Virus record (IMG/VR): IMGVR_UViG_3300037440_000408 | Coordinates: 1 to 30,025 of that record | Direction: 5' to 3' (one strand) | Source of the DNA: a virus | Lineage: Duplodnaviria; Caudoviricetes | DNA length: 30,025 nt | Shown: positions 5,314 through 29,688 of the stretch, piece after piece | Layout of the letters: every line of letters starts with the position of its first letter | How positions within the stretch are numbered: the first letter of the stretch is position 1 | The notes under the pieces: model-generated | Database searches by the model: none | Seen by the model: only the letters and a program-made list of their open reading frames with translations | Told to the model about the DNA's origin: nothing | Position numbers and translations under genes: made by a program

Positions 5314-5675
5314 GGCGCGGCGCCGTTCACTTGCGACACGTGTCGCGACTGAACAGTGCCATCCTGCTGTTCTTGCCGTTCACTTACGACATCTGGCGCG
5401 ACTGAACAGCTAGAACAGCTGTAGTTGTGCAGGGCCAGATGGACCCAGCCGACCGACCGGCCGTAGCCGTGGTCGACCAGCCAGGCCACGATCTGCCGCA
5501 CCGACATGCCCTCGTGGCGGCGGGCGTGCACTGCGGATACCAGTAGCAGCCGATCGTCATCGGAGGGTCGGCCGTACCCGTCGCGCTTGTTCCACCGCTG
5601 TATCGTCCGCTGGCTCACGGCCAGCATCTGTGCCAGAGCTGCGCTGGAGACCTTGTAGTTCGGTCGGCTACTCAT
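5310..5675 (-). CDS. HTH DNA-binding protein
   Basis: SAALAQMLAVSQRTIQRW and a second HTH-like GMSVRQIVAWL...RSVGWVH. Confidence 0.65.
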   Translation of the reverse strand: MSSRPNYKVSSAALAQMLAVSQRTIQRWNKRDGYGRPSDDDRLLLVSAVHARRHEGMSVRQIVAWLVDHGYGRSVGWVHLALHNYSCSSCSVAPDVVSERQEQQDGTVQSRHVSQVNGAAP

Positions 5676-6253
5676 GGCGCAGCCGCCAGCGACCACCGGC
5701 CGTCGACGCACGCGAACAGCTCCCCGTCGGCTGGCTCGGTCGGAACCTGGTTGCCCCATGCGCTCCACCCGAACCCGGGGGTGCGTGCGAACAGCTCCAC
5801 GTACGGCCCGGGTGAGACCTGCTCGACCAGCCGCATGAAGTGCGCCGGCTTGGCGGAGTGCCGCCCGCGTGGCCACTCGTACCAGGTGGAGATGGGCTTG
5901 TGCGCCGGTGTGACCGGCCGCCCGCGGGTGGCGAGGATCGCGTGCTCCGTGTTGTTCCGCAGGTAGTGCCCCACCCCGGGCTGCGGCTTGCACCAGGTGA
6001 GCATGGTGACCGGCCGGAACCCCCAGGCCCGGGCGACCTGGTGCGCCTCCTCAACCATCGAGTTGATCGCCCAGAGCCACAGGTGCGCGTCGGGTGCGGC
6101 CAGCGACTCCACCGGCATGTCGAGGATCTCGGCCAGCGGCATGGTCTGGTAGAACCTGCCAGCGTTCGCTTTGGTGGCCGCTGCGTGCGGGAGCGCCCAC
6201 GGCGGATCCGCCACGATGGTGCCGTACGGCGGGTGCAGGTCGGTGAGCTTCAT
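5672..6253 (-). CDS. MT-A70 family N6-adenine methyltransferase
   Basis: TIVADPPW, LWLW, WGF...LTWCK, G-H-YLRNNTEH, HSAKP, ELFAR, WGNQ. Confidence 0.92.
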   Translation of the reverse strand: MKLTDLHPPYGTIVADPPWALPHAAATKANAGRFYQTMPLAEILDMPVESLAAPDAHLWLWAINSMVEEAHQVARAWGFRPVTMLTWCKPQPGVGHYLRNNTEHAILATRGRPVTPAHKPISTWYEWPRGRHSAKPAHFMRLVEQVSPGPYVELFARTPGFGWSAWGNQVPTEPADGELFACVDGRWSLAAAP

Positions 6254-6453
6254 CCGGCACGCTCCAGCGCGCCGGCGCAGATCTTGCACTGGAGATGCGA
6301 AAACCAGGGCTTGCCGGCGGCGATCGCCCGGCCGCGGCTGGCTCGCTCGGCGGCGGTGCCGTGGATCAGGCTGTCGGTGATGGTCGGTACAGTGACGGTC
6401 GAGCCGTCGTCTGGCTCGCCACCGCCGGCCGGAGCCACCCGGCCGGCGTTCAT
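6250..6453 (-). CDS. hypothetical protein
   Basis: GGAGG upstream; ATGA overlaps on both sides. Confidence 0.5.
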   Translation of the reverse strand: MNAGRVAPAGGGEPDDGSTVTVPTITDSLIHGTAAERASRGRAIAAGKPWFSHLQCKICAGALERAG

Positions 6454-11714: not shown

Positions 11715-13688
11715 TTACCTCACGATCCGGTAGGTGCGGTCCTCCGGCGGGATCCGGTAGGTGCGGTCCTCGGCCGGGATCCGGTAGGTCCGCTCCGCGG
11801 GGGTCGGCCCGGCCGTGTCGAGCTGGTCCGAGCCGGGCCAGGCTGCCAGCAGCAGCACCGCGCCGTCCCCGGTACCGGCGACCGCGGGGGTGCCGGTTCC
11901 GGGCGCTGCGGCCAGCTGGAGCGTGCAGGTAGCCCCTGTGCCGCCGGTGGCCGGTACCCCGGCACCCTGCCCGGCGGCCAGGGCCAGCCCAGCGGGTGCA
12001 CCGCTGCCGGAGTGTTCTTCGGCGCCGCCGCCGCCGACCTCACCACCCCCGAGCCCGGCCGTGAGGGTGAGCCCGGCCAGGGTGCCGTTTCCGGTGATCG
12101 AGGGGGTGCCCGTGCCGGCGGCCGGGGTGAGCGTGACGCTCTCGGCCTGCCCGGTGCCGACCGCGGCAGGCGAGCCCTGCCCGGCGGCGGCCACCATGCT
12201 CAGACTGGTGCCGGTTCCGCCGCCGGCCGCTGCAGGCGTCCCGGCACCTGCAGCGGCGGCCAGGGTGAGCCCGGCCGGCTCGCCACTGCCGGAGTGCTCC
12301 TCTCCACCGACGCCCCCGGTGCCGGGACCGGCCGTGAGGGTCATGCTGGCGGGCTGGCCGCTGCCGGCGATCGCCGGGGTGCCCGCGCCGGCGGCCGGGG
12401 TGAGCGTGGCGCCGGCGCCGTCGCCGGTGCCGCCAATCGCGGGGGTGCCGGTGCCCTGCCCGGTGGTCAGGGTCAGGCTCTCGGCCGTACCGTCGCCGGA
12501 GTGCTCCTCCGGCGGAACCGGCCCCACGTCGGCTTCAAGCCACGAGTTGGTTGTGTTGACCAACGCGGTTATGGTTCGGCCGCCGCCGCCGCTCTGCTTC
12601 TTCAGCTCGACGGACACGGCGACCCGGTCGCCGGGGACCCACGGCTCGTCGAACTCGAAGTCCTGGGTCTTGACGCCGGTGGTGTTCTGTTCGCTGCTGA
12701 AGATGGAGCTGTTCAGCAGTGTGCCGGCGGAGTTGTACCGCTGCACCCGCCACCGGTAGCGCAGCGTGCTGGCGGACACGGCGCTGATGTTGATCGAGGT
12801 GCTGAACGTCGGGTCCAGGACGACGGTGTCGGCGGGCAGGTTGAAGTGGAACCGGAACACCTCGGTGAACGTGGTCGACGAGATGCTGGCGGAGGTGAGG
12901 CTTGCGAGGGTGCCCTGGGTGGGGTTCAGGTCCCAGACGATGCCGGTCGATCCGGCCTCGTTCTGAATGTTGCGCATGAAGTACGTGGTGAGCAGGAAGA
13001 TCCCCGACTCGAAGTCCTGGAAGTCCAGGGAGGAGTCGATCAGCGGCGCGGCCGAGGTGGTGCCGATCTCGTCGGCCAGCCCGGGCGACAGGTCCTCCAC
13101 CATCGTCTGATTGCTGATCTGGTTGAACAGCCACCAGGCGTCCGGGGCGGCATCCGACCAGCCTTCCATCTCGGACTCAAGCTGAGCGGTCTCGATATCC
13201 CCGTCGGCCGCCCAGGGCACTTCGAGCCAGCCGCCGGCGGCGCACACCCGCCCGTCGTAGTGCTCGCTGGTGCCCTCCCGGCTGAACCGGATGGTGCCCA
13301 GCTCGCCGGGGGCGGTCCAGTTGGCGAGTGCCGTGTCCCCGTCGGCGTGCCCCCAGCTGGCGGTGTCCACCTCCAGGGTGGTGAACCGGGGGGTGGCGGT
13401 GCCGGTGGGCTTCAGGACCACGGCGAGGGTCCACTCCAGCGGGGTGACGGTGGGGCCGATCGAGGTGGCGGCGCCGGAGGTCAGCACCAACCGGTTGGAG
13501 CTGTCCAGCGACAGCCCGCCGAGGAAGCTGCCGGCGGCGTCGTGGAACCCGAGCAGCATCCGGGCGGTGCCGGTGTCGTCGGCCCGGAACAGGTGCGCGA
13601 TGGCACCATGGGTCATCCCTGCGAGGTCGCCGGGCTGGCGGATAATGTCGTCCGCGACCTCGCCGTCTAGGACCCGAACCCGAACCAC
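11715..13688 (-). CDS. fibre/adhesin-like virion protein (LamG/ConA-like N-terminus, Gly/Ala/Thr repeat stalk)
   Basis: Beta-rich N-terminal domains, about ten 22-aa repeats, C-terminal RTYRI x3. Confidence 0.7.
   Translation of the reverse strand: MVRVRVLDGEVADDIIRQPGDLAGMTHGAIAHLFRADDTGTARMLLGFHDAAGSFLGGLSLDSSNRLVLTSGAATSIGPTVTPLEWTLAVVLKPTGTATPRFTTLEVDTASWGHADGDTALANWTAPGELGTIRFSREGTSEHYDGRVCAAGGWLEVPWAADGDIETAQLESEMEGWSDAAPDAWWLFNQISNQTMVEDLSPGLADEIGTTSAAPLIDSSLDFQDFESGIFLLTTYFMRNIQNEAGSTGIVWDLNPTQGTLASLTSASISSTTFTEVFRFHFNLPADTVVLDPTFSTSINISAVSASTLRYRWRVQRYNSAGTLLNSSIFSSEQNTTGVKTQDFEFDEPWVPGDRVAVSVELKKQSGGGGRTITALVNTTNSWLEADVGPVPPEEHSGDGTAESLTLTTGQGTGTPAIGGTGDGAGATLTPAAGAGTPAIAGSGQPASMTLTAGPGTGGVGGEEHSGSGEPAGLTLAAAAGAGTPAAAGGGTGTSLSMVAAAGQGSPAAVGTGQAESVTLTPAAGTGTPSITGNGTLAGLTLTAGLGGGEVGGGGAEEHSGSGAPAGLALAAGQGAGVPATGGTGATCTLQLAAAPGTGTPAVAGTGDGAVLLLAAWPGSDQLDTAGPTPAERTYRIPAEDRTYRIPPEDRTYRIVR
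11724..11804. repeat. 27-bp tandem repeat x3 (coding)
   Basis: gatccggtaggt at 11724, 11751 and 11778. Confidence 0.85.
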
Positions 13689-14033: not shown

Positions 14034-14375
14034 CTAGGCGGTGGAGTAGGGGGCGGTGTTCAGCGTGTAGGTGCCGGCGGTGGCGAAGTTCTGGGATGCG
14101 GTCAGCAGCTCCCCGTACAGGAAGGTGGCCCCGTCCCACGCTCCCCAGCCGGTGACGGTCACCCCGGCCGGGATGTTGAACACCGCGGCCGAGGCGATGT
14201 CCCCAGCGCCGGCGGTGGGGGCGCTGTACGTCTTGGCCACCTTGGCGTAGCTGCCGCCGGTGACTTCGTTGGCGCCGGTGGTGCCGGCCCCGGCACCGGT
14301 GTGCATGCTCAGCTGGGTGACCGTGCCGGCCACCCCGGAGTAGCCGCGGTTCAATGCGGTGGTGCTGTTAGCCAT
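14034..14375 (-). CDS. small tail-fibre-associated structural protein
   Basis: LSMHTG...GANEVTGGSYAK...FNIPAG.TVTGWGAWD. Confidence 0.7.
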   Translation of the reverse strand: MANSTTALNRGYSGVAGTVTQLSMHTGAGAGTTGANEVTGGSYAKVAKTYSAPTAGAGDIASAAVFNIPAGVTVTGWGAWDGATFLYGELLTASQNFATAGTYTLNTAPYSTA

Positions 14376-15204: not shown

Positions 15205-15930
15205 TCACAGTCCTATCACGATCATGAACCGGTCGGCGAAGAACGCCTGAGCCGGTGGCTCCAGGCTCCGGTACTTCGCGGTGAAGGTGTGCAGCCCGGG
15301 GTTGAGCCCGGTCACCGTGTCGCCCATCAGCGCGGTGGCCACGTGCAGCGCGTCAATGTCCCACACCAGCTCGTTCTCGGATGCCGGCGCCGCCACGGTG
15401 CTCGCCCCAGAGACCGCGAACGACATCGACACGCCCTTGTTCGGGGCGGATGAGACGCTGGCGCCCCACAGCACCACGGCCGTACCCGACTCCCCCACCT
15501 CCACGTCCGGGACGGTAGGCCCCGGCGTGGCCAGGTCCCCGTACGTCCCGGAGACGGTGGGCTCGGCGTCGGCGACCCCGGCGCGTTTGATCCCTTCGGC
15601 GAAGATCAGCCGGGACAGCTGCTTGGCCAGGCCGGCGCGCATGAACCGCACCGCCTTGTCCGCCGCCTCGGTGCCGGGGGTCACCCACCGGCCGTCGATG
15701 GCCAGCGACCCGCGGCGGGTCACGATGTCCACCACCGTGCCGGGGGTCCACGACAGCGCGTCCGGGGTCATCTTCAGCGGCGGGTTGGTGAGCACCGCCC
15801 CGTTGTAGGCCACGGTGCCGCGGAACGTGTCCGGGTCCCAGGTGAGCAGCACCCCCTTTCCGGCGCGGCCCGCCTCGGCCGGCCGGCGGGTCAGGTGCGG
15901 GGTCAGGTCGTCGCTGGCGTGGGTGGTCAT
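15205..15930 (-). CDS. minor tail protein
   Basis: Follows the tail hub; C-terminal TGLNPGLHTFTAKYR. Confidence 0.7.
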   Translation of the reverse strand: MTTHASDDLTPHLTRRPAEAGRAGKGVLLTWDPDTFRGTVAYNGAVLTNPPLKMTPDALSWTPGTVVDIVTRRGSLAIDGRWVTPGTEAADKAVRFMRAGLAKQLSRLIFAEGIKRAGVADAEPTVSGTYGDLATPGPTVPDVEVGESGTAVVLWGASVSSAPNKGVSMSFAVSGASTVAAPASENELVWDIDALHVATALMGDTVTGLNPGLHTFTAKYRSLEPPAQAFFADRFMIVIGL

Positions 15931-18308
15931 GGTCCGCCCCCGATCGCCACCTGGGCGCGCTCGCGCATGCTGATGGCCATTCGGCCCAGATCCAGCGGGA
16001 TGGTCACCGCGCCGACGGTCCGCAGCGACCGGCTGTCCCCGGTGTCGACGGTGACCACCTGGAAGGGGTCGAGCGCCGGATTGGGCACCGTGTCCAGCTC
16101 CACCACGTCCGGGAACCCGAGCGAGCGGCGCAGCATCGCCTCGGCCGCGGACCGGGCCTGGTCGTCGTTGCCGATCAGCGGGCTCACGAAGAACCGGGGC
16201 ACCTTCCCGAACGGCCCACCCCAGCGGGTGGGGGACAGCGGGTTCGCGTCGATCGCCACCGCCCGGGCGGGCAGCTGGTCGTCCAGCCCCTCACCGGTGG
16301 CCACCACCGCGTTGTAGACCTCCTCCCGGGACAGCCGCCGGCCGGCGAAGCCGAGCCCACCACCGCGGCCGGTGGCGATCTCCCACACCGGCGCCGCATC
16401 CTCCGGGGCGGTCTCGAACCTGAGCACCCCGGCCCGATCCCAGTAGACGATCTTCCCGTGGGCGCGGGCCAGGTCGAGCAGCCCGGCCAGCCGCTCCTCC
16501 TCCACCACCCACAGCCGGCCAAGCGGCTGCTGGGGCGTCTGGTCGTCGAATGCGATCACCGCGTCCGGGTAGATGTCGAAGACCAGCTCCTGAACCACCG
16601 ACCCGACTGTCCGGTCGGGCTGAAACTCGACCGGGGCGAGCATCCGGGCGTCCCGGATGCCGGCCATCCGGTCGTACCCGACCACCCGGACAGGCCCGTC
16701 GGGTGCGTTGTCCTGTTCCGCCACGTCGATCCGGTAATAGCCCAGCGACACCCGCAGCGGCGGCGCACCACCGAGGTCCACCAGGTAGGCGAGGTGGATC
16801 TCGTTTCCGAACGGGGCGAGCAGGTCCGACCCGCGGCGCGGCCACATGCCCTCGCCGGGGGTCTCCAGGTTCACGCTGCCGCGGATCTCGGCGCTGCCGT
16901 CCAGGGTGACTTCCCCGCCGAGCACCTCGATCTGGGTGCCGGCCGGCGTCTGGCCGGTCTGGAAGCTGGTGCACACGGTGGCATGGATGCTGGTGCGGTG
17001 GGAGCCGGTCAGGGTCCGCAGCAGCGCCCCGGTGGCCACCGGCGGCGGCGGGTCACCGATCACACTGAACTGCCACAGCCCCTGTCGGGTGGTGCCGCGC
17101 CAGCACGCCAGCCGGATACTGAGCACCGAGCCCAGGTCGGCCACCTCGACGGTGCCGTACTGGTCCCGGCCGGGCACGTCGGGCATCGCGTCGAACCGGG
17201 TTACCGCGCCGCTGGGGGTGGAGTCCAGCGATGCGGCCTGCAGCACCGGGAACCCGCCGACCGAGCCGGCGCCGGAGTCGATGCCGTTGGCGTGCCGGTC
17301 GCCGTGCCAGATGACGGTGCGGCCGGACCAGCCCAGGTCGCCGATCATCTCCGCAATCTCGGCCCGCTCGGTGGCGAACGCGCCCCACGAGTCGGTAGAG
17401 GTGCCCGCCCACTGCGAGCCGGACAGCAACACCAGCAGCTTCGCCTCGCCGTGGTCGGCCAGTATGGACCCAAGCCAGGCTTTCTGGGCCGCGCCGAGCA
17501 TCGTCTTCGACGGCCCGTCCGGGTCGTCGTTGGGGGAACGGTTGAACCGCACGTCCAGGGACACGAACCGGACCCGGCTGATCTCCCACGGATGGTAGAT
17601 GCCGTCCAGCCCGCCCAGCGGCGGGTGCGGCACCCGCTCCCCGTACACCTGCAGCGCGTTGGCTTTGGTGGCCAGCGTCCCGTCGGAGTCGTTCGGGCCG
17701 TAGTCGTGGTCATCCCAGATCAGGTCGAGCGCGAGCTCGCGGTACAGCGAGGCCTGGTTGGTCTGGGCCAGGATGTCGTCGTAGCCGGCCCGGTAGTTCG
17801 CCAGCGACCCGCCGCCGACGATGCCGTGGAAGTCGCTGCCGAGGTCGTAGTAGTGCAGGTCCCCGAGGTGAGCGAACCGGCGCCAGCCGGCAGCGTGCGC
17901 GTGGCCGAGGATGGTGCCGAAGATCGGGCTGTTACTGATCCGGCCGGCGGCCAGCGGGGTCCCGGCGGCCGGGACCGACGGGAGCCCACCGGCGCAGCTG
18001 GCGCCACCGACGGTGAACGAGCCGGGCAGCCCGGCCGGCGGGTCGGTGAGGAACCGGCCGACCGTCAGGGTGTCCACCGTCCCGTTGTCCTCGACCCGCC
18101 AGAAGTGGGCGGTGTCCGGGGCCAGACCGGTGATGGCGACCTTCGCCACCCCCTGGGCGTCGACCACCTGCGAGCCGGTGAACACCGCCGCCGCCATGGC
18201 CGGGTTGTCGGCCACCTGCACCCGCACCGGACCGCCCCCGTCGACCCGCGCCACGAAGGTGGCGCCGCCCGGGGTGGCCGCGCCCACCACCATGGATACG
18301 ACGGCCAT
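15927..18308 (-). CDS. PhoD-like phosphatase fused to a tail hub/minor tail (DUF5047-like) domain
   Basis: HLGDLHY, WDDHD, LDVR..RS, MLGAAQKAWL, GDRH; C-half LAPFGNEI, LGYYRI, GYDRM, VYNAVVATGE, PNPALDP. Confidence 0.8.
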   Translation of the reverse strand: MAVVSMVVGAATPGGATFVARVDGGGPVRVQVADNPAMAAAVFTGSQVVDAQGVAKVAITGLAPDTAHFWRVEDNGTVDTLTVGRFLTDPPAGLPGSFTVGGASCAGGLPSVPAAGTPLAAGRISNSPIFGTILGHAHAAGWRRFAHLGDLHYYDLGSDFHGIVGGGSLANYRAGYDDILAQTNQASLYRELALDLIWDDHDYGPNDSDGTLATKANALQVYGERVPHPPLGGLDGIYHPWEISRVRFVSLDVRFNRSPNDDPDGPSKTMLGAAQKAWLGSILADHGEAKLLVLLSGSQWAGTSTDSWGAFATERAEIAEMIGDLGWSGRTVIWHGDRHANGIDSGAGSVGGFPVLQAASLDSTPSGAVTRFDAMPDVPGRDQYGTVEVADLGSVLSIRLACWRGTTRQGLWQFSVIGDPPPPVATGALLRTLTGSHRTSIHATVCTSFQTGQTPAGTQIEVLGGEVTLDGSAEIRGSVNLETPGEGMWPRRGSDLLAPFGNEIHLAYLVDLGGAPPLRVSLGYYRIDVAEQDNAPDGPVRVVGYDRMAGIRDARMLAPVEFQPDRTVGSVVQELVFDIYPDAVIAFDDQTPQQPLGRLWVVEEERLAGLLDLARAHGKIVYWDRAGVLRFETAPEDAAPVWEIATGRGGGLGFAGRRLSREEVYNAVVATGEGLDDQLPARAVAIDANPLSPTRWGGPFGKVPRFFVSPLIGNDDQARSAAEAMLRRSLGFPDVVELDTVPNPALDPFQVVTVDTGDSRSLRTVGAVTIPLDLGRMAISMRERAQVAIGGGP

Positions 18309-18862
18309 CAGATCACCACCACGTCATCCGGGCTGGCCATCAGCGCCAGCAGCGCCGCATAGGACGGGTTGGCGGCCAGCACGTTGTCATAGCCCCCGTA
18401 CAGGTTCAGCAGCGCGGCGTACGTCATGGAACCGCCGATCACGTCGGGGCCGTCGGGGGCAACCACCCGGCACGCCAGCCGGAAGTAGCGCCGCGGCGAG
18501 CGGGCCGACCGGGTACGCCGGGCCTGGCTGCTGTTCCCCAGCCGCACATACCCGCCGGGCACCGGGCAGTCCGGCGGGGTCTGCACCAGGTAGGTGCCGC
18601 CGGCGGCAAGCCGCAGATCCATGTTCCTGGCCTCGACCGCGGTCGGGGTGGCGATCTCCAGCTCGAAGGTCGGCGAGCTGGGCACGTCGGTGATCGCGAT
18701 CGGAACCGACCGGCCGCGCGGTTCGAACATCACCTCCCGCTGGTCGCGGTCCACGTCAGACCAGTCGGTCACCGTGACCGGGGCGTTCAGGAACTGGTGC
18801 CGGATGCTCTTAAGGATGATCCGGCCCCCGTTGTCCGGTGTGATGCTGACGGTCTGCGACAT
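18308..18862 (-). CDS. distal-tail (Dit)-like protein
   Basis: Position between TMP and hub; GRSVPIAITD motif. Confidence 0.55.
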   Translation of the reverse strand: MSQTVSITPDNGGRIILKSIRHQFLNAPVTVTDWSDVDRDQREVMFEPRGRSVPIAITDVPSSPTFELEIATPTAVEARNMDLRLAAGGTYLVQTPPDCPVPGGYVRLGNSSQARRTRSARSPRRYFRLACRVVAPDGPDVIGGSMTYAALLNLYGGYDNVLAANPSYAALLALMASPDDVVVI

Positions 18863-19767
18863 CAGGTCACGTCCGCGAAGTAGTGCTCGATGATGGCGCA
18901 GCCCGGCGCCCCGGCCCCGCCGGCGCGCGCTGCCTGGGATGCGGCGTTCCGGGCGCCCGACCCGCCGCCGCCGAACCCACCGGCCGGGGCCGACCCGGCA
19001 GCGCTGAAGGCGTGCGTGGTGCGGGCACCCGGCCCGAACATGCCACCCGCGCCCCGTCCGCCGAAACCCGCCAGGCCGCCGCGGATCAGCCCGTAGTGAC
19101 CGATCTCCCCCGGGATGATCAGGTCCGCGCCCGTGGTTGTCAGTCCGGAGGAGCCGCCCGTGTTCTGGGCGTTGCCGGAGGTGGCCGGCGAACCCGAGCC
19201 GCCGGAGCCGCCGGACACCGACAGGTCGGTGCCGACCGTGCGGGTGAAGCTGACCGCCCCACCGGCGCCGCCGGCGTTCGCCCCGGCCGTCCCGGCGGCA
19301 CCAACCGCGCCAATGGTCACCGTCTCCTCATCGTCCAGGTCCGCGGCGGGAATCCAGGCAACCACGATGCTGCCGTAGGCGCCCCCGCCCGCTTCCGCGT
19401 TCTCACCGGCTGCGGTTGCGGCCACGCCCCCGCCGCCGGATCCCGGTTGTACCAGGACCGCCTTGACCGCGACCAACCCGGCCGGCTTGCTCCACTGCCC
19501 AGTTACCGTGATCAGCATGATGTTGTCCTCCGTGCTCGCTTGCGTGACCCGGTAGTGGCGGAGCACCCGGTCCCGGTATTCGTGGTCCGAGATGACCGCC
19601 GCGCCGGCCTCGATCGGCAGGGCCAGCCCGCCGCGGACCGGGAACGTCCGCCCGGCGGGGAAGCCGGCCACGTCGGACCGCTCCACCAGTACGGCCCCGT
19701 TGGCGAAGTCGGCCAGCAGCAGCTGCACCCGCCAGGTGTCCTCGTGGAAACTCGCAGTGACGGTCAT
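18862..19767 (-). CDS. minor tail protein with glycine-rich domain
   Basis: WSKPAG...GSGGGG...GGGA.G...VTIGA.G...GAPGCAII.HY. Confidence 0.7.
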   Translation of the reverse strand: MTVTASFHEDTWRVQLLLADFANGAVLVERSDVAGFPAGRTFPVRGGLALPIEAGAAVISDHEYRDRVLRHYRVTQASTEDNIMLITVTGQWSKPAGLVAVKAVLVQPGSGGGGVAATAAGENAEAGGGAYGSIVVAWIPAADLDDEETVTIGAVGAAGTAGANAGGAGGAVSFTRTVGTDLSVSGGSGGSGSPATSGNAQNTGGSSGLTTTGADLIIPGEIGHYGLIRGGLAGFGGRGAGGMFGPGARTTHAFSAAGSAPAGGFGGGGSGARNAASQAARAGGAGAPGCAIIEHYFADVT

Positions 19768-21473
19768 GCCAGCCCCACCCCCGTGGCCAGCCGGCCACCG
19801 AGCCGCCGGTCCCTGCGGCTGACCACCCGCACCAGCGACTCGTCAACCGCCCGGCCGTCGATGACCACCGTCACATGCGTGTCGCCCAGCTCCGTCTGCT
19901 GCTGCTCTCGGGTCAACACCCGCTCGCCTGCCCGGGCGAGGATCGGTACCTCCCGGCCCAGCGGCCCGGGCACCACCCCGCCGGTGTGGAACCGGTTGAC
20001 GTGCGGGGTCGACAGGGTGAACCCGCCGAAGGTCTGCCCCAGGAACTTCACCGGCGGCAGCGTGAACGACAGGCTGTTCCACTTGTCGATCACCCAGTTG
20101 ATCGCGGACCTGAACGCATCCCTTATACCGTCCCACATTCCGGATGCGGCCGAGCGGAACTTCGCCCCCAGCCCACCGAAGAACCTGATCAGCCCATTGA
20201 ACGTGCCGACCACCAGGTTCCGCACCCCGGTCCACGCGTCACCGATCCCCGAGGCGACCACCTTCGTGGCCGTCGCCAGGAACTGCCAACCCCTGACCAG
20301 CATGGCCGTGGTGAAGATCAGCCCGCGGATCACCAGCACGGTGGTCCCGACCGCCCCCACGAACAGCGGCCCCAGCACCGGCAGCACATACTTGACGATG
20401 AAGTCGGCGACATCCTTCAGCCCCTTGCCGACAAAGATCAGCTCATCCTTGTGATCGCGCACCGCCTCCGTGATGTCATCCCACGCTTTCTTGGCCACCT
20501 TGATAGCGCCCTCGACCAGCGTCTTGAGAACCGGGATCACGTTCTCTTCCAGGTAGCCCCACAGGTCCTCCAGCCGAGGAAGCACCTCATCGCGAACCCA
20601 GCCGGCGAAGGTCTGCAGCGCCGGAACCACCTCATCGCGAACCCAGCCGGCGAACCGGCGGACCGCCGGCGCCAGGTGCAGCTCTACCCACTCCGCGGCC
20701 TTCTTGATAGCCGGGGTGGCCTTGACGATCAGCGTCTGCGCCCAGTCGCGCAGCTTCGCCTTTCCGGTGGCCAGCGTGCGGGACAGGGTGTCGCCGCCCT
20801 CGGCGTACGCCTTCTGTGCGTCGGCCGACTTCTCGAAGATCAACTCCTGGGTGGCGATCGCCTTGGCCTGTTCCAACGCGGCCCCGGTGAGCCCCTGCTG
20901 GCCTTTCTTGGCCAGCCGCGCCTGCACGTCGGACTCCATGATGGAGATGCCCAGCTGCTTCAGGCCCTCGCGCTCGCCAAGCATCGCCTTGGCGAGGATG
21001 TCGGAGACCTCGGCCGAGCTGAGCTTCCCGGATGTCCACTCGGACAGCGCACCCGACAGCCCGACCACGTTCGTGGCCATCTTGGTGGCTTCCTTGGCGC
21101 CGAATCCCATCGGCTTCAGCAGGTCGGCGAAGGAGGCGGCCAGCCCGACCGCCTCGCGGGTGGTCAGCCCCATCGCGGCGCCGTTGTCCTTGGCCCACTT
21201 CTCCGCCACGCCGAGTTGGTCCTCAAAGACAATCTTCGCCTTGTTGGCGGCCAGCTCCCACCCGGCGGCCTGGTCGAGCAGCTTCGGGCCGAATGCCACC
21301 GCCGCCACCCCGACCGCCGCCACCGCCGCGGCGCCGGCCAGCGCGGCGGTCTTCAGCCCGGACAGGGCCTTGGAGAATCGGCCCACCGAGCCGCCGGCCC
21401 GCTTGCTGGCGGCGTCTATTCCGCGGGTGTCCCCGTCGAAGCGGGTCCGGATGGTGCGCACCCCGACGGCCAT
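19764..21473 (-). CDS. tape measure protein
   Basis: Ala/Gly-rich helical; AMLGEREGLKQLGI; periodic W/F repeats; FHTGGVVPG..G...ILARAGERVL. Confidence 0.9.
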   Translation of the reverse strand: MAVGVRTIRTRFDGDTRGIDAASKRAGGSVGRFSKALSGLKTAALAGAAAVAAVGVAAVAFGPKLLDQAAGWELAANKAKIVFEDQLGVAEKWAKDNGAAMGLTTREAVGLAASFADLLKPMGFGAKEATKMATNVVGLSGALSEWTSGKLSSAEVSDILAKAMLGEREGLKQLGISIMESDVQARLAKKGQQGLTGAALEQAKAIATQELIFEKSADAQKAYAEGGDTLSRTLATGKAKLRDWAQTLIVKATPAIKKAAEWVELHLAPAVRRFAGWVRDEVVPALQTFAGWVRDEVLPRLEDLWGYLEENVIPVLKTLVEGAIKVAKKAWDDITEAVRDHKDELIFVGKGLKDVADFIVKYVLPVLGPLFVGAVGTTVLVIRGLIFTTAMLVRGWQFLATATKVVASGIGDAWTGVRNLVVGTFNGLIRFFGGLGAKFRSAASGMWDGIRDAFRSAINWVIDKWNSLSFTLPPVKFLGQTFGGFTLSTPHVNRFHTGGVVPGPLGREVPILARAGERVLTREQQQTELGDTHVTVVIDGRAVDESLVRVVSRRDRRLGGRLATGVGLA

Positions 21474-21934
21474 CAACGTGCCCCCGCGCTGAACGACCGG
21501 GCGATGTCATCGGCGGCCCGCCGCCACGCCGCGATCACGTCGTCCGCGTTCCGCTCGGCGGTCGGGAAGAACCAGTGTCCCTTGCGGCCGGAGTGCCGCC
21601 GGCCGAACTGCTTGTAGGCGTCGGAGCCGAACTCGGAGCCGAACAGCACCTTCCACGCCGGGACTTTCCGGCGGCCCACCTTGGCGAACCCGCCGGCGAC
21701 GATCGAGGGCACCCGGTCCCGCCGCGCCCGGACCGTCTTGGCCAGCAGCGGCGACTGGGGGGCCTGGTCGGACATGGCCGCCGCGCGCGCCCGGCCGGCC
21801 AGCGTCTCGGTCAGCTCAGTCGACCGGTTCCGCAGCGCCTTGGAAGCCTCCTTCGGAAGCCGGCGGTACGCGGCCAGGGTCTCCCTGACCCCCTCGATGC
21901 GCACGGTCACGACCAGTGCTCTTGACCGGGCCAT
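21473..21934 (-). CDS. HK97 gp10-like protein
   Basis: VRIEGVRE...EFGS...WFFP; SD AGGAGG 5 nt before ATG at 21934. Confidence 0.6.
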   Translation of the reverse strand: MARSRALVVTVRIEGVRETLAAYRRLPKEASKALRNRSTELTETLAGRARAAAMSDQAPQSPLLAKTVRARRDRVPSIVAGGFAKVGRRKVPAWKVLFGSEFGSDAYKQFGRRHSGRKGHWFFPTAERNADDVIAAWRRAADDIARSFSAGAR

Positions 21935-24696: not shown

Positions 24697-27600
24697 CTAC
24701 GCGCCCACCGTGTGCCGGATCGCCGACAGCCCCACCGGCCGAAGCAGGTGGGTCGCGAAGTAGCCGAACAGCGCCAGGTCGATGAACGTCGGGCCGGACC
24801 TCTCCTCGTACCGGAAGACCAGGGTCGGCGACTCCCACGCCCACGCGTCCATGCTGTTCAGGGTGAACACGTCGGCGTCACCCGCGGCGTTGCCGGTGAT
24901 CGCCCACGCGGGCACATGCGCCAGCCCGTCCACGAACCAACCCACCTGCACCGCGTTGCCCACCCCGGCGGCGTTCTGGGCGCCCACCGACGGCAGCAGC
25001 GGCCGGTCCTGCGCGTCCTCGGCCGTCGCGAACGCGGAGGTTGCCTCCTGGCTGAGCAGCGCCCGGTCCGGGGCCCCGAACCGGCGGAAGCTGTAGACCG
25101 CCAGCGCCGCCCGCACCCCACGCAGCAGCTCCAGCCCGCCGAAGGTACCGGCAGCCGCCGACCCGCCGGTGGTGGTGCGCACCTGGGCACCGGACGGGAC
25201 GAACCCGGCGGTGATCGTGCCACCCTGCCCCGAGCTGCCGTTGAGCAGCGTGTACACCTTGCTCTCGCTCTGCCGCGCGTAGCTCTCCCGCATCGCGTTG
25301 AGCGCGATCTGGTCGATCACCGGGTTGGAGCTGTCCACGATCTCCCGGGTCAGCTTCAGCAGCCCCGAGATCGCCGTCGGGGTGACCGTCTTGGTCGCGA
25401 ACGCCAGCGTCCCGTCGGACGGAGGAGTCCCCTCCACGTGGTCCGCAGTCGCCCCGGTCGCAGAGCCGAAGATCGGCACCACGAACGGAGTCGAATTCTG
25501 GATCACGCCCCGGGACAGCGCATTCACGAACGGGCGGCCCTGCGCCAACTGCGGCACGAACAGGTCCGGCCGGTACCCCGGCGGGATCACCTCGGCCGCC
25601 GATGTGGTGGTGGTCGGCCCGAACGACAGCAGCTGGTTGGTGGCGAACGCCAGCCGGGAGTGAGCAATCTTGCTCATCTCTTCGGTCTGCTGGTGGAACT
25701 TCCGGATCCGGCCGTACGCCTCATCGTCCCGGTGGAAGTGGGCCGCCCACGCGTCGCGCACCAGGCAGCTTCCGCCGCCGTTGAACGTGTAGATCGGCGC
25801 CTCACGGGTCACCACGAACCGGGCCGCCCGCACCGGCTGCGGCCCGTCGGTCTGCGGGTCGTGGATGTTTTCCAGCGCCGCCTTGATCCCTGCGCTGAAC
25901 GAGTCACCCAGCGACTTGGCCAGGTCCGCGGTCAGCTTCTTGTGACCCTCGGCCATGCTCTCGCCGAGCTTGGTCACGTAGCCGTCCATGTCGAACTGGG
26001 CGGCGGGCGCCGCCGGCTCGGTCTTCTCGGGCATGGCGCCCTTCCCTCCATCTCGGGTTGCTTTGACCGCGGTGACCCGCGCGTCATCGAACGCGGGCAT
26101 CCCCGTTAGGGCGACACCCCGCAGCGTGGCCTGCCGCACCAGTCGAACCGACTCGTCGGACGGGTCGGGCTGCCACTGGTCGCCCATCTCGTCGTCGAAG
26201 TCGACCTCGATGCTGAAGCCATCCCAGCTACCATCCCGGGCCTTTCTCAGCGCCCGGTCCTCCTCCGGTCCCTCGCCGACCTTGAAGGTCGTATCCAGCC
26301 CGCGGCTGGTCGACTGGAGTCGCATCGCGTGACCGACGACCTCGCGGAAGTCGTGATGCAGGTTGAGCTTCACCCTGGCCTCAGTCGACCAGCGAAGCGA
26401 TCCTTCGGCGAACCGCCACTTGGCGAACCCTGAACGGGCAACCTTGCCCCACGGAACCGCCAGACCTGAGATCGTGCGCTTCTCCACGTTCACCCGGAAG
26501 GTCTCCGCGACCTCCGCGGTGTCAAACCGGATCCGGGTCACCCCGTCCCCGTCCGCCTCGAACGCCAACCCCGCCGGCTGGCCAAGCTTGTGGCCGTTGC
26601 TACCGCTCATCGTTGGCTCCCTGCCATTCGGGCGGGCCGGTGGCTGGGCCTGCCGGTCGCCACGCTGGTCCACCCGGGCGCGCTGCGCCGGAGTCAGCGC
26701 CGGCCGATTCTCCAGCTCCCGGATCTCGTCATCGGTGTACGCACCCACCTCAAGCCCGGTCTTGTACGTCGTCATCCGGGTCAGGGTGTCCCCGCGGAGG
26801 AACCCGCCGAAGTCCACCCGGGCCTTGTAGCCGCGGGGGGTCACGTCCCGCATGCTCAGCCGATCCTGAACCGCGGACACGTACGGCCCGTACGTGTCGG
26901 TGATCTTGTCCTGGCGCCGCTCCTCACCGTTCTGGTAGGTCCGGGAGGTGGTCGACACCCCCAGGTCCTCCGGGTCCACCCCGATCGCCCGGGCGATCTC
27001 CAGCACCGCATGCTGCCGCTGATCGGCCAGCTGCAGCTGCTCGGGGTTCCAGCTCAGCGTCTTGGCCTCCAGCCCACCGACGTAGCCCCACGCCCGCCGG
27101 GACCGGGCGGCCTCCCACGCGTCCAGCGCCACGTCGACCTCGGACCGGTCGGTCCCGTCGCCGGCCGAACGCGGCTCGGCCGACAGCGAATCGGCGCCCT
27201 CCGCCGGCGAGAAGTAGCCCAGCGGCAGCGGGTCGGTGGCGTACAGCGCCGCCGCCCGGTCCAACTTCAGACAGGTGCGGATCGCCCTCGCCGCGTGCAG
27301 CAGCAGCGGCGGGTTCGGCGAGTCAAACCGGATGATCTCCCGGTCCGGGACCGATACCCCGTCGATGAACACCTGGCCGTCGACCGGGAACAGCTGATCC
27401 GGGCTGATCTGCGACTGCGACTGGAGCCCGCCAGTTGGGGCCACGTGCACCGCCTGCACCGGCACATGCCGGGCCTGGACCGGGAACCCGTGCCACCCGA
27501 ACGCAGTCACCCGCCACCAGGCGATCCCCTCGAACAACAAGTCCTCGTACACCTGGCTGAATATCACACTGGTCGGGATGTCCGGGTCCGGCTGCTCAAA

Positions 27601-27882
27601 CAGCGGCCACTCGGCCGCCCGCCGGTCCGGGCCGATCTTCCGCAGCGGCAACGTCGCCGGCGTGCAGACCAGGTTGCGGCCCCGCAGCACCGCCATACAC
27701 TGAAGCGCCTCAGCGCGGGAGATCCGCGGCTCGATCGCCCCGCCGGCGGCCATTGCCTCCAGCATCTCCGGGGGGACCTCGACGGTGAACCGGGCGGCCG
27801 GGCGGGGGCTGACCATGGTGGCTCGGGGCGTGGCGGGTCCGGTCTGGTCGAATCCGAACAATCTGCGCCACCCTGAGGCCAC
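24697..27882 (-). CDS. portal - prohead protease - major capsid fusion
   Basis: Portal motifs (EIARAIGV, TYQN.E, EIRELENRP) at about 27882-26611; HK97-type protease (ISGLAVPW, HHD, DGFSI, PAFDDARV) 26610-26035; HK97-fold capsid 26034-24697; no stop between them. Confidence 0.88.
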   Translation of the reverse strand: MASGWRRLFGFDQTGPATPRATMVSPRPAARFTVEVPPEMLEAMAAGGAIEPRISRAEALQCMAVLRGRNLVCTPATLPLRKIGPDRRAAEWPLFEQPDPDIPTSVIFSQVYEDLLFEGIAWWRVTAFGWHGFPVQARHVPVQAVHVAPTGGLQSQSQISPDQLFPVDGQVFIDGVSVPDREIIRFDSPNPPLLLHAARAIRTCLKLDRAAALYATDPLPLGYFSPAEGADSLSAEPRSAGDGTDRSEVDVALDAWEAARSRRAWGYVGGLEAKTLSWNPEQLQLADQRQHAVLEIARAIGVDPEDLGVSTTSRTYQNGEERRQDKITDTYGPYVSAVQDRLSMRDVTPRGYKARVDFGGFLRGDTLTRMTTYKTGLEVGAYTDDEIRELENRPALTPAQRARVDQRGDRQAQPPARPNGREPTMSGSNGHKLGQPAGLAFEADGDGVTRIRFDTAEVAETFRVNVEKRTISGLAVPWGKVARSGFAKWRFAEGSLRWSTEARVKLNLHHDFREVVGHAMRLQSTSRGLDTTFKVGEGPEEDRALRKARDGSWDGFSIEVDFDDEMGDQWQPDPSDESVRLVRQATLRGVALTGMPAFDDARVTAVKATRDGGKGAMPEKTEPAAPAAQFDMDGYVTKLGESMAEGHKKLTADLAKSLGDSFSAGIKAALENIHDPQTDGPQPVRAARFVVTREAPIYTFNGGGSCLVRDAWAAHFHRDDEAYGRIRKFHQQTEEMSKIAHSRLAFATNQLLSFGPTTTTSAAEVIPPGYRPDLFVPQLAQGRPFVNALSRGVIQNSTPFVVPIFGSATGATADHVEGTPPSDGTLAFATKTVTPTAISGLLKLTREIVDSSNPVIDQIALNAMRESYARQSESKVYTLLNGSSGQGGTITAGFVPSGAQVRTTTGGSAAAGTFGGLELLRGVRAALAVYSFRRFGAPDRALLSQEATSAFATAEDAQDRPLLPSVGAQNAAGVGNAVQVGWFVDGLAHVPAWAITGNAAGDADVFTLNSMDAWAWESPTLVFRYEERSGPTFIDLALFGYFATHLLRPVGLSAIRHTVGA

Positions 27883-27930
27883 GCTGTCATCGTACGCTTG
27901 AACTCTCAATTATTGAGCGCTCAACCTAGG
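27883..27930. promoter_or_regulatory. divergent promoter/operator region between portal and terS
   Basis: TACGAT 6 nt before GTG at 27882 (leaderless); two TTGA-N4-TCAA boxes at 27898-27909 and 27913-27924. Confidence 0.6.
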
Positions 27931-27938
27931 GATTTCGG

Positions 27939-28247
27939 ATGAGTCCGGTACGCGATGCTGACAAGCTGGTGCTCCCGCAGGTCCGGCACACCATCGAGCA
28001 ACTGCCGCTGCTGGCGGCCGATAGCGCCGCCGCCACCCTGGCTGAGCGGTACGCCGACGCGATCGACCAGCCCAGCTGCCCCGAATGCGGAGGCCACAAG
28101 CAGGCCCTGATCGACCTCGGCCCCAAACTGCTGGCCGTGCTGGAGTCCCTCGGCGCCACCCCGAAGGCCCGGACCGCCGCCGTGAAGGGAGGTGAGTCCG
28201 CTGGCCAGGGTGCCCTCGCCAGGCTCCGGGCTGCTCGGACGGGCTGA
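27939..28247 (+). CDS. terS: terminase small subunit
   Basis: D.AA..LA.RYADAID...LGPKLLAVLESLGATPKAR; directly upstream of terL. Confidence 0.75.
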   Translation: MSPVRDADKLVLPQVRHTIEQLPLLAADSAAATLAERYADAIDQPSCPECGGHKQALIDLGPKLLAVLESLGATPKARTAAVKGGESAGQGALARLRAARTG

Positions 28248-29688
28248 GCCGCGCCTCTGGACACCCCCGGCGCGGCGGCTCACCCGCGCCACCAGCCGCG
28301 GGTACGAGGTCGCCGACTTCGCCGAGCAGGTCCTCGGCGAGCCGCTGCTCCCCTGGCAACGCTGGCTGGCCATCCACGCCTTGGAGTTGAACGCGGACGG
28401 CACCTACCGCTTCCGCGTCGTATTGGTGCTTGTCGCTAGACAGAGTGGGAAATCCTACGTACTGCGGGTCGTCTCCCTGTGGCGGCTGTTCATGGACGGC
28501 GCCCGGCTGGTCCTCGGCGCTGCCCAGTCGCTCGACATCGCCCGGGAAGTGTGGCAGGCCAGCGTCGACACAGCCAAGAGCGTCCCCGACCTCGCCGCCG
28601 AGATACCCCCGAACGGGGTCCGCTACGCCAACGGTGAACAGTGCCTCACCACCACCGGCGGCGGCCGCTACCGGATCACCGCCGCCACCCGCTCAGCCGG
28701 CCGCGGGCTGGCAGTCGACCAGCTCAACCTTGACGAGTTGCGGGAGCAACGGGACTGGCTGGCGTGGGCGGCGCTTTCGAAGACCACCATGGCCCGCGCC
28801 AACGGGCAGATATGGGCGTTCAGCAGCGGCGGCGACGACCAGTCGGTGGTACTCAACCACCTGCGCGAGGCGGCCCTCTCCGGCCGCGACCCGTCGATCA
28901 TGCTCGCCGAATGGTCCGCCCCCGACGGGTGCGACCTCGACGACTGGGCCGCCATCGCCCAGGCGAACCCCGGACTCGGCCACACCATCTCCGCCCAGGC
29001 CATCCGCACCGCCCAGGCCACCGACCCGCCCGGCACCTACCGGAACGAGGTCCTCTGCCAGAAGATCGAATCCAGCGGCGACGACGCGATCGACATGATC
29101 GCCTGGCGGGACCTCGCCGACCCGGCCGGCACCCTGGAGAGCTACCGCGACCAGGTAGCCGCCGGCATCGACGTAGCCCCCGACGGTGCCCACGTCGCCC
29201 TGATCGCCGCCGCGGTCCAACCCGACGGACGCAGCGTCCGCATCGAGCCGGTCGCCACCTGGAAGTCCACCGACGCGGCGAGGGTCGAGCTGCCGGACCT
29301 GCTCGACCGGATGAACCCGCGCGCCACCGCGTGGTTCCCCTCCGGCCCGGCCGCCTCGCTCGCCCCGATGCTCCGCGCCCGGAAGGGCTCCCTAGAGCTC
29401 AAGGGCGGCGCGGTCTGCGAAGCCTGCCAAGGACTCGCCCAGCTGGTCACCGACCGACTGCTGATCCACCCCGGCGACCCGCTGATCGACGCCCACGCAG
29501 CCGGGGCGATCAAGCTGCACATTGGCGACGGATGGCGATTCTCACGCAGAGGCGGAGGTCACGTGAGCGCGCTGTACGCCGCGAGCGGCGCGGCGTACGC
29601 CGCACTCACCGTCCCGCAGGTGGTCAGGATCAAGCCCCGGGTGGTGGCCGGCCGCCGGCCGAGGGCCGCAGCGGAGGCGACCCGGTAG
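28192..29688 (+). CDS. terL: terminase large subunit
   Basis: LLPWQ, Walker A VARQSGKS, Walker B LNLDELRE, ANPGLG, GIDVAPD. Confidence 0.93.
   Translation: MSPLARVPSPGSGLLGRAEPRLWTPPARRLTRATSRGYEVADFAEQVLGEPLLPWQRWLAIHALELNADGTYRFRVVLVLVARQSGKSYVLRVVSLWRLFMDGARLVLGAAQSLDIAREVWQASVDTAKSVPDLAAEIPPNGVRYANGEQCLTTTGGGRYRITAATRSAGRGLAVDQLNLDELREQRDWLAWAALSKTTMARANGQIWAFSSGGDDQSVVLNHLREAALSGRDPSIMLAEWSAPDGCDLDDWAAIAQANPGLGHTISAQAIRTAQATDPPGTYRNEVLCQKIESSGDDAIDMIAWRDLADPAGTLESYRDQVAAGIDVAPDGAHVALIAAAVQPDGRSVRIEPVATWKSTDAARVELPDLLDRMNPRATAWFPSGPAASLAPMLRARKGSLELKGGAVCEACQGLAQLVTDRLLIHPGDPLIDAHAAGAIKLHIGDGWRFSRRGGGHVSALYAASGAAYAALTVPQVVRIKPRVVAGRRPRAAAEATR

Follow-up and report, generated by a model that had tools for sequence, protein, structure and literature searches.

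The stretch of DNA analyzed here (hereafter the window) comprises positions 1 to 30,025 of IMG/VR virus record IMGVR_UViG_3300037440_000408 (Duplodnaviria; Caudoviricetes), a record of 30,025 bases and 70% guanine-plus-cytosine (GC) content that includes an integrase, a primase-polymerase, and head and tail genes. Its tail module contains a 793-residue open reading frame (ORF) in which a PhoD-like part (residues 1-417) is joined through ~10 residues to a tail hub of the Mu gp44 type (residues 428-793). This PhoD-hub fusion had been described in a first reading of the sequence (the original prediction) as a PhoD-type phosphatase attached to a tail protein and acting on the host wall. The locus and its relatives are summarized in Table 1.

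Table 1. Features of the window and of related loci. Positions without a locus label (L) are those of the window; P labels denote proteins. pLDDT, predicted local distance difference test; pTM, predicted template modeling score; TM, template modeling score.
Feature	Location	Strand	Basis or remark
PhoD-hub fusion, whole ORF	15927-18308	minus	793 residues; AlphaFold2 mean pLDDT 92, pTM 0.91
N-terminal Ig/fibronectin-like domain of PhoD, residues 1-90	18039-18308	minus	PhoD_N 20-88; all-beta from residue 3
PhoD catalytic domain, residues 93-417	17058-18032	minus	Pfam PhoD; 2YEQ top structural match
Short linker with PPPP, residues 418-427	17028-17057	minus	pLDDT 63
Tail hub (Tal/gp27/gp44 type), residues 428-793	15927-17027	minus	Hub-fold matches; DUF5047 at 16539-16916
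Conserved minor tail gene (cluster c2)	15205-15930	minus	phrog_7565
Predicted distal tail (Dit-like) gene, 184 residues	18308-18862	minus	phrog_16363; Atlas tube-type fold look-alikes, TM 0.53-0.71
Glycine-rich tail fibre-type gene	18862-19767	minus	PF21722, phrog_863
Tape measure protein	19764-21476	minus	10 tape-measure PHROGs, best E 2e-21
Small gp80-like gene	14034-14375	minus	After tail module
657-residue protein, Gly/Ala/Thr-rich repeats	11715-13688	minus	After tail module
Portal, prohead protease, and major capsid protein in one 1070-residue ORF	24697-27909	minus	
Terminase-large-subunit-like frame	28192-29688	plus	Motifs in translation; no NCBIfam match
ORF with DPPW motif, adenine-methyltransferase-like	5672-6289	minus	By eye; no NCBIfam match
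Chromosomal tail-type PhoD copies	L109:7857-9272, L111:5888-7186 (G108), L112:7038-8393, L114:7986-9212, L119:7848-9455, L122:1463-3166		
M14-hub fusions	L043:6897-9107, L056:6327-9143, L069:6060-9083		
M14-hub fusions	P0131, P0134, P0137, P0142, P0144, P0145, P0147		

Profile searches identified both halves of the fusion. Pfam PhoD (PF09423) matched residues 167-341 above its cut-off (36.8 bits versus 27), PhoD_N matched residues 20-88 under its cut-off (23.1 bits versus 30), and a PHROGs phosphodiesterase family covered residues 1-398 (E 2e-94). In the C-terminal half, Pfam DUF5047 matched residues 465-590 (E 1e-26) and the PHROGs tail family phrog_1887 matched residues 430-782 (E 5e-40), while a scan of the fusion against NCBIfam returned no match. 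These results agree with the original prediction of a PhoD-like N-terminus of ~420 residues followed by a DUF5047-like tail domain, for which profile searches with PhoD and DUF5047 had been suggested.

A protein search recovered 157 relatives. Among the 120 listed, 80 carry both DUF5047 and the PhoD region, and 75 of these entered the alignment, those with large inserts or truncation being excluded. A single-chain AlphaFold2 model was built from 76 aligned sequences, and the best structural match of its enzyme half is Bacillus subtilis PhoD (2YEQ; Z 34.3, rmsd [root-mean-square deviation] 2.8, 391 aligned residues; Foldseek E 2e-21), ahead of purple acid phosphatase folds (Z 31.7). The PhoD fold on which the original prediction depended is thus present in the model. 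A profile of the clade also matches 2YEQ (E 1e-14), whereas a search of PDB with the single protein reached it only at E 0.28. As in the PhoD family, an immunoglobulin (Ig)-like N-terminal domain is predicted to precede a metallophosphoesterase beta-sandwich.

The predicted iron and calcium ligands are C105, D150, Y153, D199, D200, N206, D207, D337, and H339. All of the motifs named in the original prediction were found (G149-D150-x-x-Y153, W198-D-D-H-D202, L-D252-x-R254, and G-D337-R-H339); the ligand set is completed by C105 and N206/D207, which had been overlooked. The iron site comprises C105, D150, Y153, and H339, in line with the Cys or Asp, Asp, tyrosinate, and His of the PhoD family. 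D199, D200, N206, D207, and D337 correspond to the calcium-site residues D265, D266, N271, N272, and D436 of B. subtilis PhoD; the assignment of N206/D207 requires a one-residue loop shift in the sequence alignment and is likely correct. In the available passages of PMC4223295, mutations of C180, D207, D265, D266, N271, N272, and D436 are described as abolishing or reducing the activity of B. subtilis PhoD, and the counterparts of these residues are, in the same order, C105, D150, D199, D200, N206, D207, and D337. Across the alignment, D150, Y153, D199, D252, R254, and H339 are invariant (76/76 rows) and the full ligand set is retained in 67 of the 76 rows, the other nine deviating at calcium sites. 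Position 105 is Cys in 33 rows and Asp in 43, a difference that separates two subfamilies named in the same source (PMC4223295, in part). In five of the 76 fusions, D200 is replaced by Asn together with D337 by Ser, which may mark lost or altered activity.

Two other assignments were rejected. The site contains Asp/Asn only and does not have the His2-Asp-Asn second-metal set that the available text of PMC4223295 gives for purple acid phosphatases. Membership in the GDPD hydrolases is excluded by the lack of a match to PF03009 in the Pfam scan to E 0.01, while a similar mode of action may still hold.

The absence of a signal peptide was corroborated: the model opens with a beta-strand at residue 3, 75 of the 76 aligned rows have no sequence ahead of query residue 1, and none of the 76 rows has a twin arginine (RR) in its first 30 residues. 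The fusion therefore differs from canonical members of the family, which are extracytoplasmic and carry a twin-arginine translocation (Tat) signal; it is PhoD-like by fold and site and is not a canonical secreted PhoD. Because the ligand set is complete and a signal peptide would not fit ahead of the fold, the modeled domain is likely an active, non-secreted iron/calcium phosphodiesterase.

The PPPP motif occupies residues 420-423 (window positions 17040-17051) between the two halves, as had been proposed, within the least confident block inside the model chain. Linker length is 9-15 residues in all 76 aligned rows and the proline run varies, and the idea of PPPP as a conserved hinge or cleavage site was dismissed since the run is not kept across the rows. 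A misassembly at the linker, which the original prediction had raised as a possible flaw, was also ruled out. GC and GC at third codon positions are similar in the two halves (0.723/0.947 and 0.724/0.932). A single contig from run X1 spans positions 16984-19189, including the linker, with zero differences and a depth equal to that of its neighbors, although X1 is the probable source sample of the record and its contig is not independent evidence. The same fusion occurs in 27 of 81 fetched loci (many of these IMG/VR contigs are closely related, such that counts from the 81 loci are not independent), and at least 75 full-length relatives exist.

The C-terminal half is a tail hub by fold and by position, in agreement with the original prediction. 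Residues 437-787 match the hubs of Milano, 7-7-1, Mu (gp44), and MuSo2 (43 kDa protein), as well as VgrG and hubs of extracellular contractile injection systems (Z 20-24.5, ~300 residues aligned), and a 29%-identical homolog in Streptomyces phage Samy (SAMYPH_23) is annotated as 'baseplate hub protein'. Mu gp44, the MuSo2 protein, and SAMYPH_23 share with the query both the hub fold and the order tape measure, Dit, hub. The available passages of PMC11302927 (Samy) and PMC6893835 (P318) contain nothing on the fusion protein.

The fusion is tightly packed between its neighbors: the stop of the Dit-like gene overlaps its start, and its stop overlaps the start of the cluster c2 gene. The Dit call depends on modeled fold look-alikes and on position and is therefore a prediction. 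Of the 27 fusions among the 81 loci, 25 are preceded by a Dit-like gene and 22 have a cluster c2 gene within 1.5 kb; for the 40 PhoD-less hubs, these counts are 36 and 32. In related loci, genes for the tape measure, a Dit-like protein, the hub, the conserved minor tail protein, and a lysin recur in this order. Together, the fold matches and the conserved gene order show that DUF5047 is the first part of the hub and that PhoD is joined ahead of the point where solved hubs start.

The survey of homologs with and without the PhoD domain that the original prediction called for (27 fusions and 40 PhoD-less hubs) revealed M14 peptidases and propellers as alternatives to PhoD. A hub-only search recovered 33 further hub proteins (436-1388 residues), of which 13 have PhoD in front, seven an M14 zinc peptidase, and three a propeller; the rest comprise one with Ig repeats, seven whose N-terminus is bare and which have an insert close to the end, one unassigned, and one (P0153) with C-terminal GH16-like and alginate-lyase-like domains. 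The M14 fusions have an HxxE motif and, in some, a LamG insert. One propeller is BNR and two are GH32/43/130-like (P0128 with an Atlas score of 0.93; P0136 via its likeness to P0128).

Phylogenetic reconstruction of 52 hand-picked hub domains (FastTree, local support, no bootstrap) placed 21/21 PhoD, 7/7 M14, and 3/4 propeller fusions in one clade (support 95), with all 20 bare-N-terminus hubs falling outside it. Cargoes are mixed within this clade; for instance, P0005 (PhoD) groups with P0129 (BNR), and two M14 fusions group with P0066 (PhoD), each grouping having support 100. This intermixing suggests that the N-terminus of the hub serves as an interchangeable slot for hydrolases, the simplest reading of the tree being that one hub lineage acquired an N-terminal cargo site and swapped its cargo several times.

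The PhoD module is not confined to hubs. Its other fusion partners are tail proteins of the phrog_1885 type, the phrog_5313 type, or further kinds, some copies being unfused and located behind such genes, and partners are intermixed across the PhoD tree; profile comparison of the phrog_1885- and phrog_5313-type partners and of cluster c16 with the hub detected no homology (probability <=3%). Among the best 100 representatives at 50% identity, 57 have one of the three tail partners, 28 are stand-alone or short, and 15 have other extensions, and PhoD starts within 10 residues of the N-terminus in 95. All 14 PhoD loci lacking a DUF5047 hub come after a tail-type gene, and stand-alone copies lie between tail genes and the endolysin in seven loci. 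In addition, a 210-residue LamG/pentraxin-like domain is inserted in the PhoD, M14, or Dit of relatives, including the PhoD domain of at least five. A mobile module, exchange of cargo, and LamG inserts fit a surface-acting virion module and fit poorly with a phosphate-feeding gene.

Named sources of the relatives include Glycomyces, Micromonospora, Stackebrandtia, Actinoplanes, and Thermobifida, and the feature is widespread among phages infecting filamentous actinomycetes. In a set of 50,697 phage genomes, no record covered 80% of the query. Strong matches were found in 16 of 301 genomes of the family of G001 (the 16 include unpublished G108 and G219, which enter the carrier counts given below), with nine in prophage tail modules and six without phage neighbors. 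A phylum-wide sample of 400 further genomes yielded no match at the level of the tail clade and three weaker ones. This clade is separated by a long branch from the canonical PhoD genes of the hosts, with weak support deep in the tree.

The six chromosomal copies fall in four places of the tree, without a signal peptide or prophage neighbors, and likely represent repeated domestication. Some end in a hydrophobic or amphipathic C-terminal helix (hydropathy 2.8 in L119; moment 1.4-1.7 in L109 and L112). Their neighbors vary and offer no clue to the substrate. The L119 copy comes after HerA-type ATPase and AIPR genes, a setting that resembles a defense island.

Several known systems resemble the fusion in part. 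B. subtilis PhoD and Streptomyces chromofuscus phospholipase D have the same Ig-like and metallophosphoesterase fold and the same iron and calcium sites. Relative to B. subtilis PhoD, the query has ~19% identity, lacks a Tat signal, is fused to a phage hub, has one extra residue in the D199-N206 loop, and belongs to a separate phage-tail clade. Enzymes and spikes of Tal proteins are usually C-terminal or inserted, whereas the hub described here has a 45 kDa enzyme in front of it, one that has been swapped for others within a single lineage. GDPD enzymes of virions are likewise tail-module phosphodiesterases that have also been co-opted by hosts and have been proposed or shown, in the passages available, to cut wall polymers at entry; they belong to an unrelated family and sit on baseplate or BppU-type proteins rather than ahead of the hub. 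Examples include baseplate enzymes of Lactobacillus phage Ld17 and Schaalia phage Xhp1, the latter being required for plaques (bioRxiv 10.64898/2026.10.08.757619, in part), and 22 GDPD genes among 544 enterococcal tail lysins (PMC10194240, in part).

The closest cultured homolog is ORF22 of Thermobifida phage P1312, encoded two genes behind the tape measure gene; it belongs to the same PhoD clade (37% identity over residues 1-407) with the same ligand pattern and is joined to CBM_4_9-type domains, not to a DUF5047 hub. In the available passages of their 2015 paper, its authors took ORF22 as secreted with a signal peptide, favored DNA degradation, and gave teichoic acid hydrolysis as a second option (PMC4569894). 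Five genes past this PhoD gene, P1312 ORF27 (L001:17071-18066) encodes a glycosyl/glycerophosphate transferase, which hints at wall-polymer modification. The same broad branch also has more remote members (26-32% identity), namely the YongM alkaline phosphatase D, the Streptomyces BE1-type 'hydrolase', and the Microbacterium 'purple acid phosphatase'. These are not fused to hubs and have other gene contexts; in the text available from PMC12352085, the role of such phage genes is called unknown. A search confined to the open literature, without subscription papers and supplements, yielded no publication that describes a PhoD-hub fusion or DUF5047 in phages. The novelty lies in the exchangeable cargo site of the hub, while GDPD wall phosphodiesterases on virions and the idea of teichoic acid as a target, from P1312, were already known.

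Collectively, these observations lead us to favor, with moderate confidence, the interpretation that the fusion is a tail-tip phosphodiesterase acting on the host envelope. Hubs of the gp27/gp44 type trimerize on the Dit ring. By analogy, the hub of the fusion would form a trimer there too, giving the tail tip three iron/calcium phosphodiesterase domains that would cleave phosphodiester linkages in the wall glycopolymer layer of the host during adsorption. PhoD lies ahead of canonical hub residue 1, on a linker of 9-15 residues in a model with pTM 0.91, which suggests that it would remain attached at the side of the tip. Metals would be loaded in the cytoplasm during assembly, the virion substituting for Tat export. 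Both the placement of hub fusions on virions and their catalytic activity are predictions. The baseplate GDPD enzymes of Ld17 and Xhp1 offer a precedent, and the presence of a distant homolog among the proteins of concentrated cyanophage YongM (see below) also speaks in favor. In close relatives, the slot is occupied by M14 peptidases or glycosidase-like propellers, which argues for an envelope hydrolase over an auxiliary phosphate role, and in this respect the original prediction is supported; its teichoic acid step is not, as described below.

Several observations weigh against a tail-tip phosphodiesterase acting at entry, or narrow what it could do. PhoD is missing from 40 of 67 hub loci and is therefore dispensable for tail assembly. 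Ligands are kept in five of the six chromosomal copies, and the enzyme thus has uses beyond entry. BE1-type phages keep a more distant homolog amid tRNA genes, far from the tail module. The substrates of the M14 and propeller cargoes are themselves putative. P1312 ORF22 is absent from the 24 virion proteins detected in that phage, a set that likewise missed tail ORFs 13, 15, 16, 18, and 21 (PMC4569894 Table 1, from the part available).

Teichoic acid as the substrate is also weakened by the genomic data. Canonical TagF (E 1e-60 or better) was detected in 6 of 16 carrier genomes versus 147 of 285 others (Fisher p 0.31), and a link between PhoD carriage and teichoic-acid polymerase genes was accordingly dropped; genome completeness is not given for these counts or for those of Stealth polymerases, and a prophage need not fit the wall of its present host. 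Among the prophage carriers, four of nine have canonical TagF. A looser limit added a split copy in G125 and a divergent copy in G204, with only weak partial matches in G006, G094, and G300. Stealth polymerases were identified in 8 of the 16 carriers, with no background rate for comparison; for G006 and G094, both prophage carriers, the matches included no canonical TagF and no Stealth polymerase. LicD-like matches were found in one of five carriers, and LCP anchoring enzymes in all five prophage carriers lacking TagF. LCP enzymes make the phosphodiester anchor of wall polysaccharides and, to our knowledge, are near-universal in the carrier group, and their presence therefore does not discriminate. 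Further, teichoic acid is not expected in the cyanobacterial host of phage YongM. A distant homolog nevertheless ranks seventh of 32 proteins in mass spectrometry of concentrated YongM (PMC8875764 Table 4), the purity of which is not described in the available passages. The carriers G006 and G094 and this cyanophage homolog speak against the teichoic acid step of the original prediction.

The substrate is likely a phosphodiester in the envelope, with classical teichoic acid as one candidate. In some hosts, the enzyme may act on teichoic or lipoteichoic acid as the phosphodiester wall polymer; in others, on a sugar-1-phosphate polymer or on the phosphodiester that anchors wall polysaccharide to peptidoglycan. 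A phospholipid is a possible substrate as well, given S. chromofuscus phospholipase D. That enzyme is the second characterized PhoD member and has the same Cys ligand (PMC4223295, in part), which is consistent with a tip enzyme that acts as a phospholipase D on the cytoplasmic membrane or on lipid-linked polymers and eases DNA entry. The terminal helices of some chromosomal copies would suit such a role, which also requires no TagF. However, the other cargoes of the slot are peptidase- or glycosidase-like and the inserts are lectin-like, pointing to the wall, and a 45 kDa side domain would be badly placed for crossing peptidoglycan; we regard a phospholipase role as unlikely.

LamG inserts in the PhoD domain and calcium sites altered in 9 of 76 rows could instead indicate that the domain mainly binds a phosphorylated receptor, or frees virions from debris, matrix, or wrong hosts, and is unneeded for wall penetration. 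Its putative side position on the tip and the fall in adsorption after loss of the Xhp1 GDPD (bioRxiv 10.64898/2026.10.08.757619, in part) would be in keeping with this. Yet the iron ligands D150, Y153, and H339, together with D199, are invariant in all 76 rows, which argues for catalysis, and dedicated fibre genes adjoin the fusion, making a mainly receptor-directed role improbable.

A phosphate-scavenging auxiliary enzyme that supplies replication, either virion-borne or produced inside infected cells, is a still weaker alternative that we consider very unlikely. PhoD is a common phosphate-starvation phosphatase (PMC4223295, in part), homologs occur in cyanophage and, in BE1-type phages, outside the tail module, and chromosomal copies exist. 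Against this, the fusion has no export signal, is in-frame with a structural protein that would be made late and in three copies per virion, exchanges its cargo with non-phosphatases, and belongs to a clade distant from the canonical PhoD genes of the hosts. Finally, stand-alone copies ahead of the endolysin, the non-detection of P1312 ORF22 in virions (PMC4569894, in part), and the lack of an endolysin match in the window could suggest that the PhoD part is cleaved off and acts apart from the virion (e.g., in lysis or superinfection exclusion), but the 76 linkers have no conserved cleavage motif and a tightly kept length and the joint arrangement is modeled confidently (pTM 0.91), and there is little reason to credit it.

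A tail-tip phosphodiesterase of this kind suggests that phages attack phosphodiester wall polymers with a second enzyme family, one not related to GDPD. It likewise suggests that a tail hub can offer a natural modular site at which phosphodiesterase, peptidase, and glycosidase-like domains replace one another. The cargo of the slot may report the barrier presented by each actinomycete host, an idea that the soluble 45 kDa domain makes directly accessible. Several virome papers mention phoD alongside auxiliary genes, but the neighbors of a virome phoD should be checked before it is counted as a phosphorus-cycling auxiliary gene. More speculatively, and with low confidence, the commonest cargo of an actinophage hub lineage with an N-terminal wall-hydrolase plug-in, the phage-specific PhoD clade, could cut the phosphodiester that anchors polysaccharide to peptidoglycan. 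If so, any such polymer would be stripped regardless of its sugars, which would explain carriage in TagF-less hosts; the clade would add another class of virion de-shielding phosphodiesterase, unrelated to the first; and many phage phoD genes counted as phosphorus-cycling would be entry enzymes that hosts have repeatedly co-opted.

The window has no terminal repeat and no tRNA, and tblastn of positions 1-30025 with 38 proteins from the lysin slot of related loci gave no match; the contig may be incomplete or the endolysin divergent. The 657-residue repeat protein and the gp80-like gene after the tail module are probably fibre or decoration parts. The terminase-like frame runs in the opposite direction to the portal and tail genes. 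Matches over nearly the whole length of the portal-protease-capsid ORF were identified in 31 IMG/VR loci, 22 of which have an open frame of at least 880 residues, and the triple fusion is therefore conserved.

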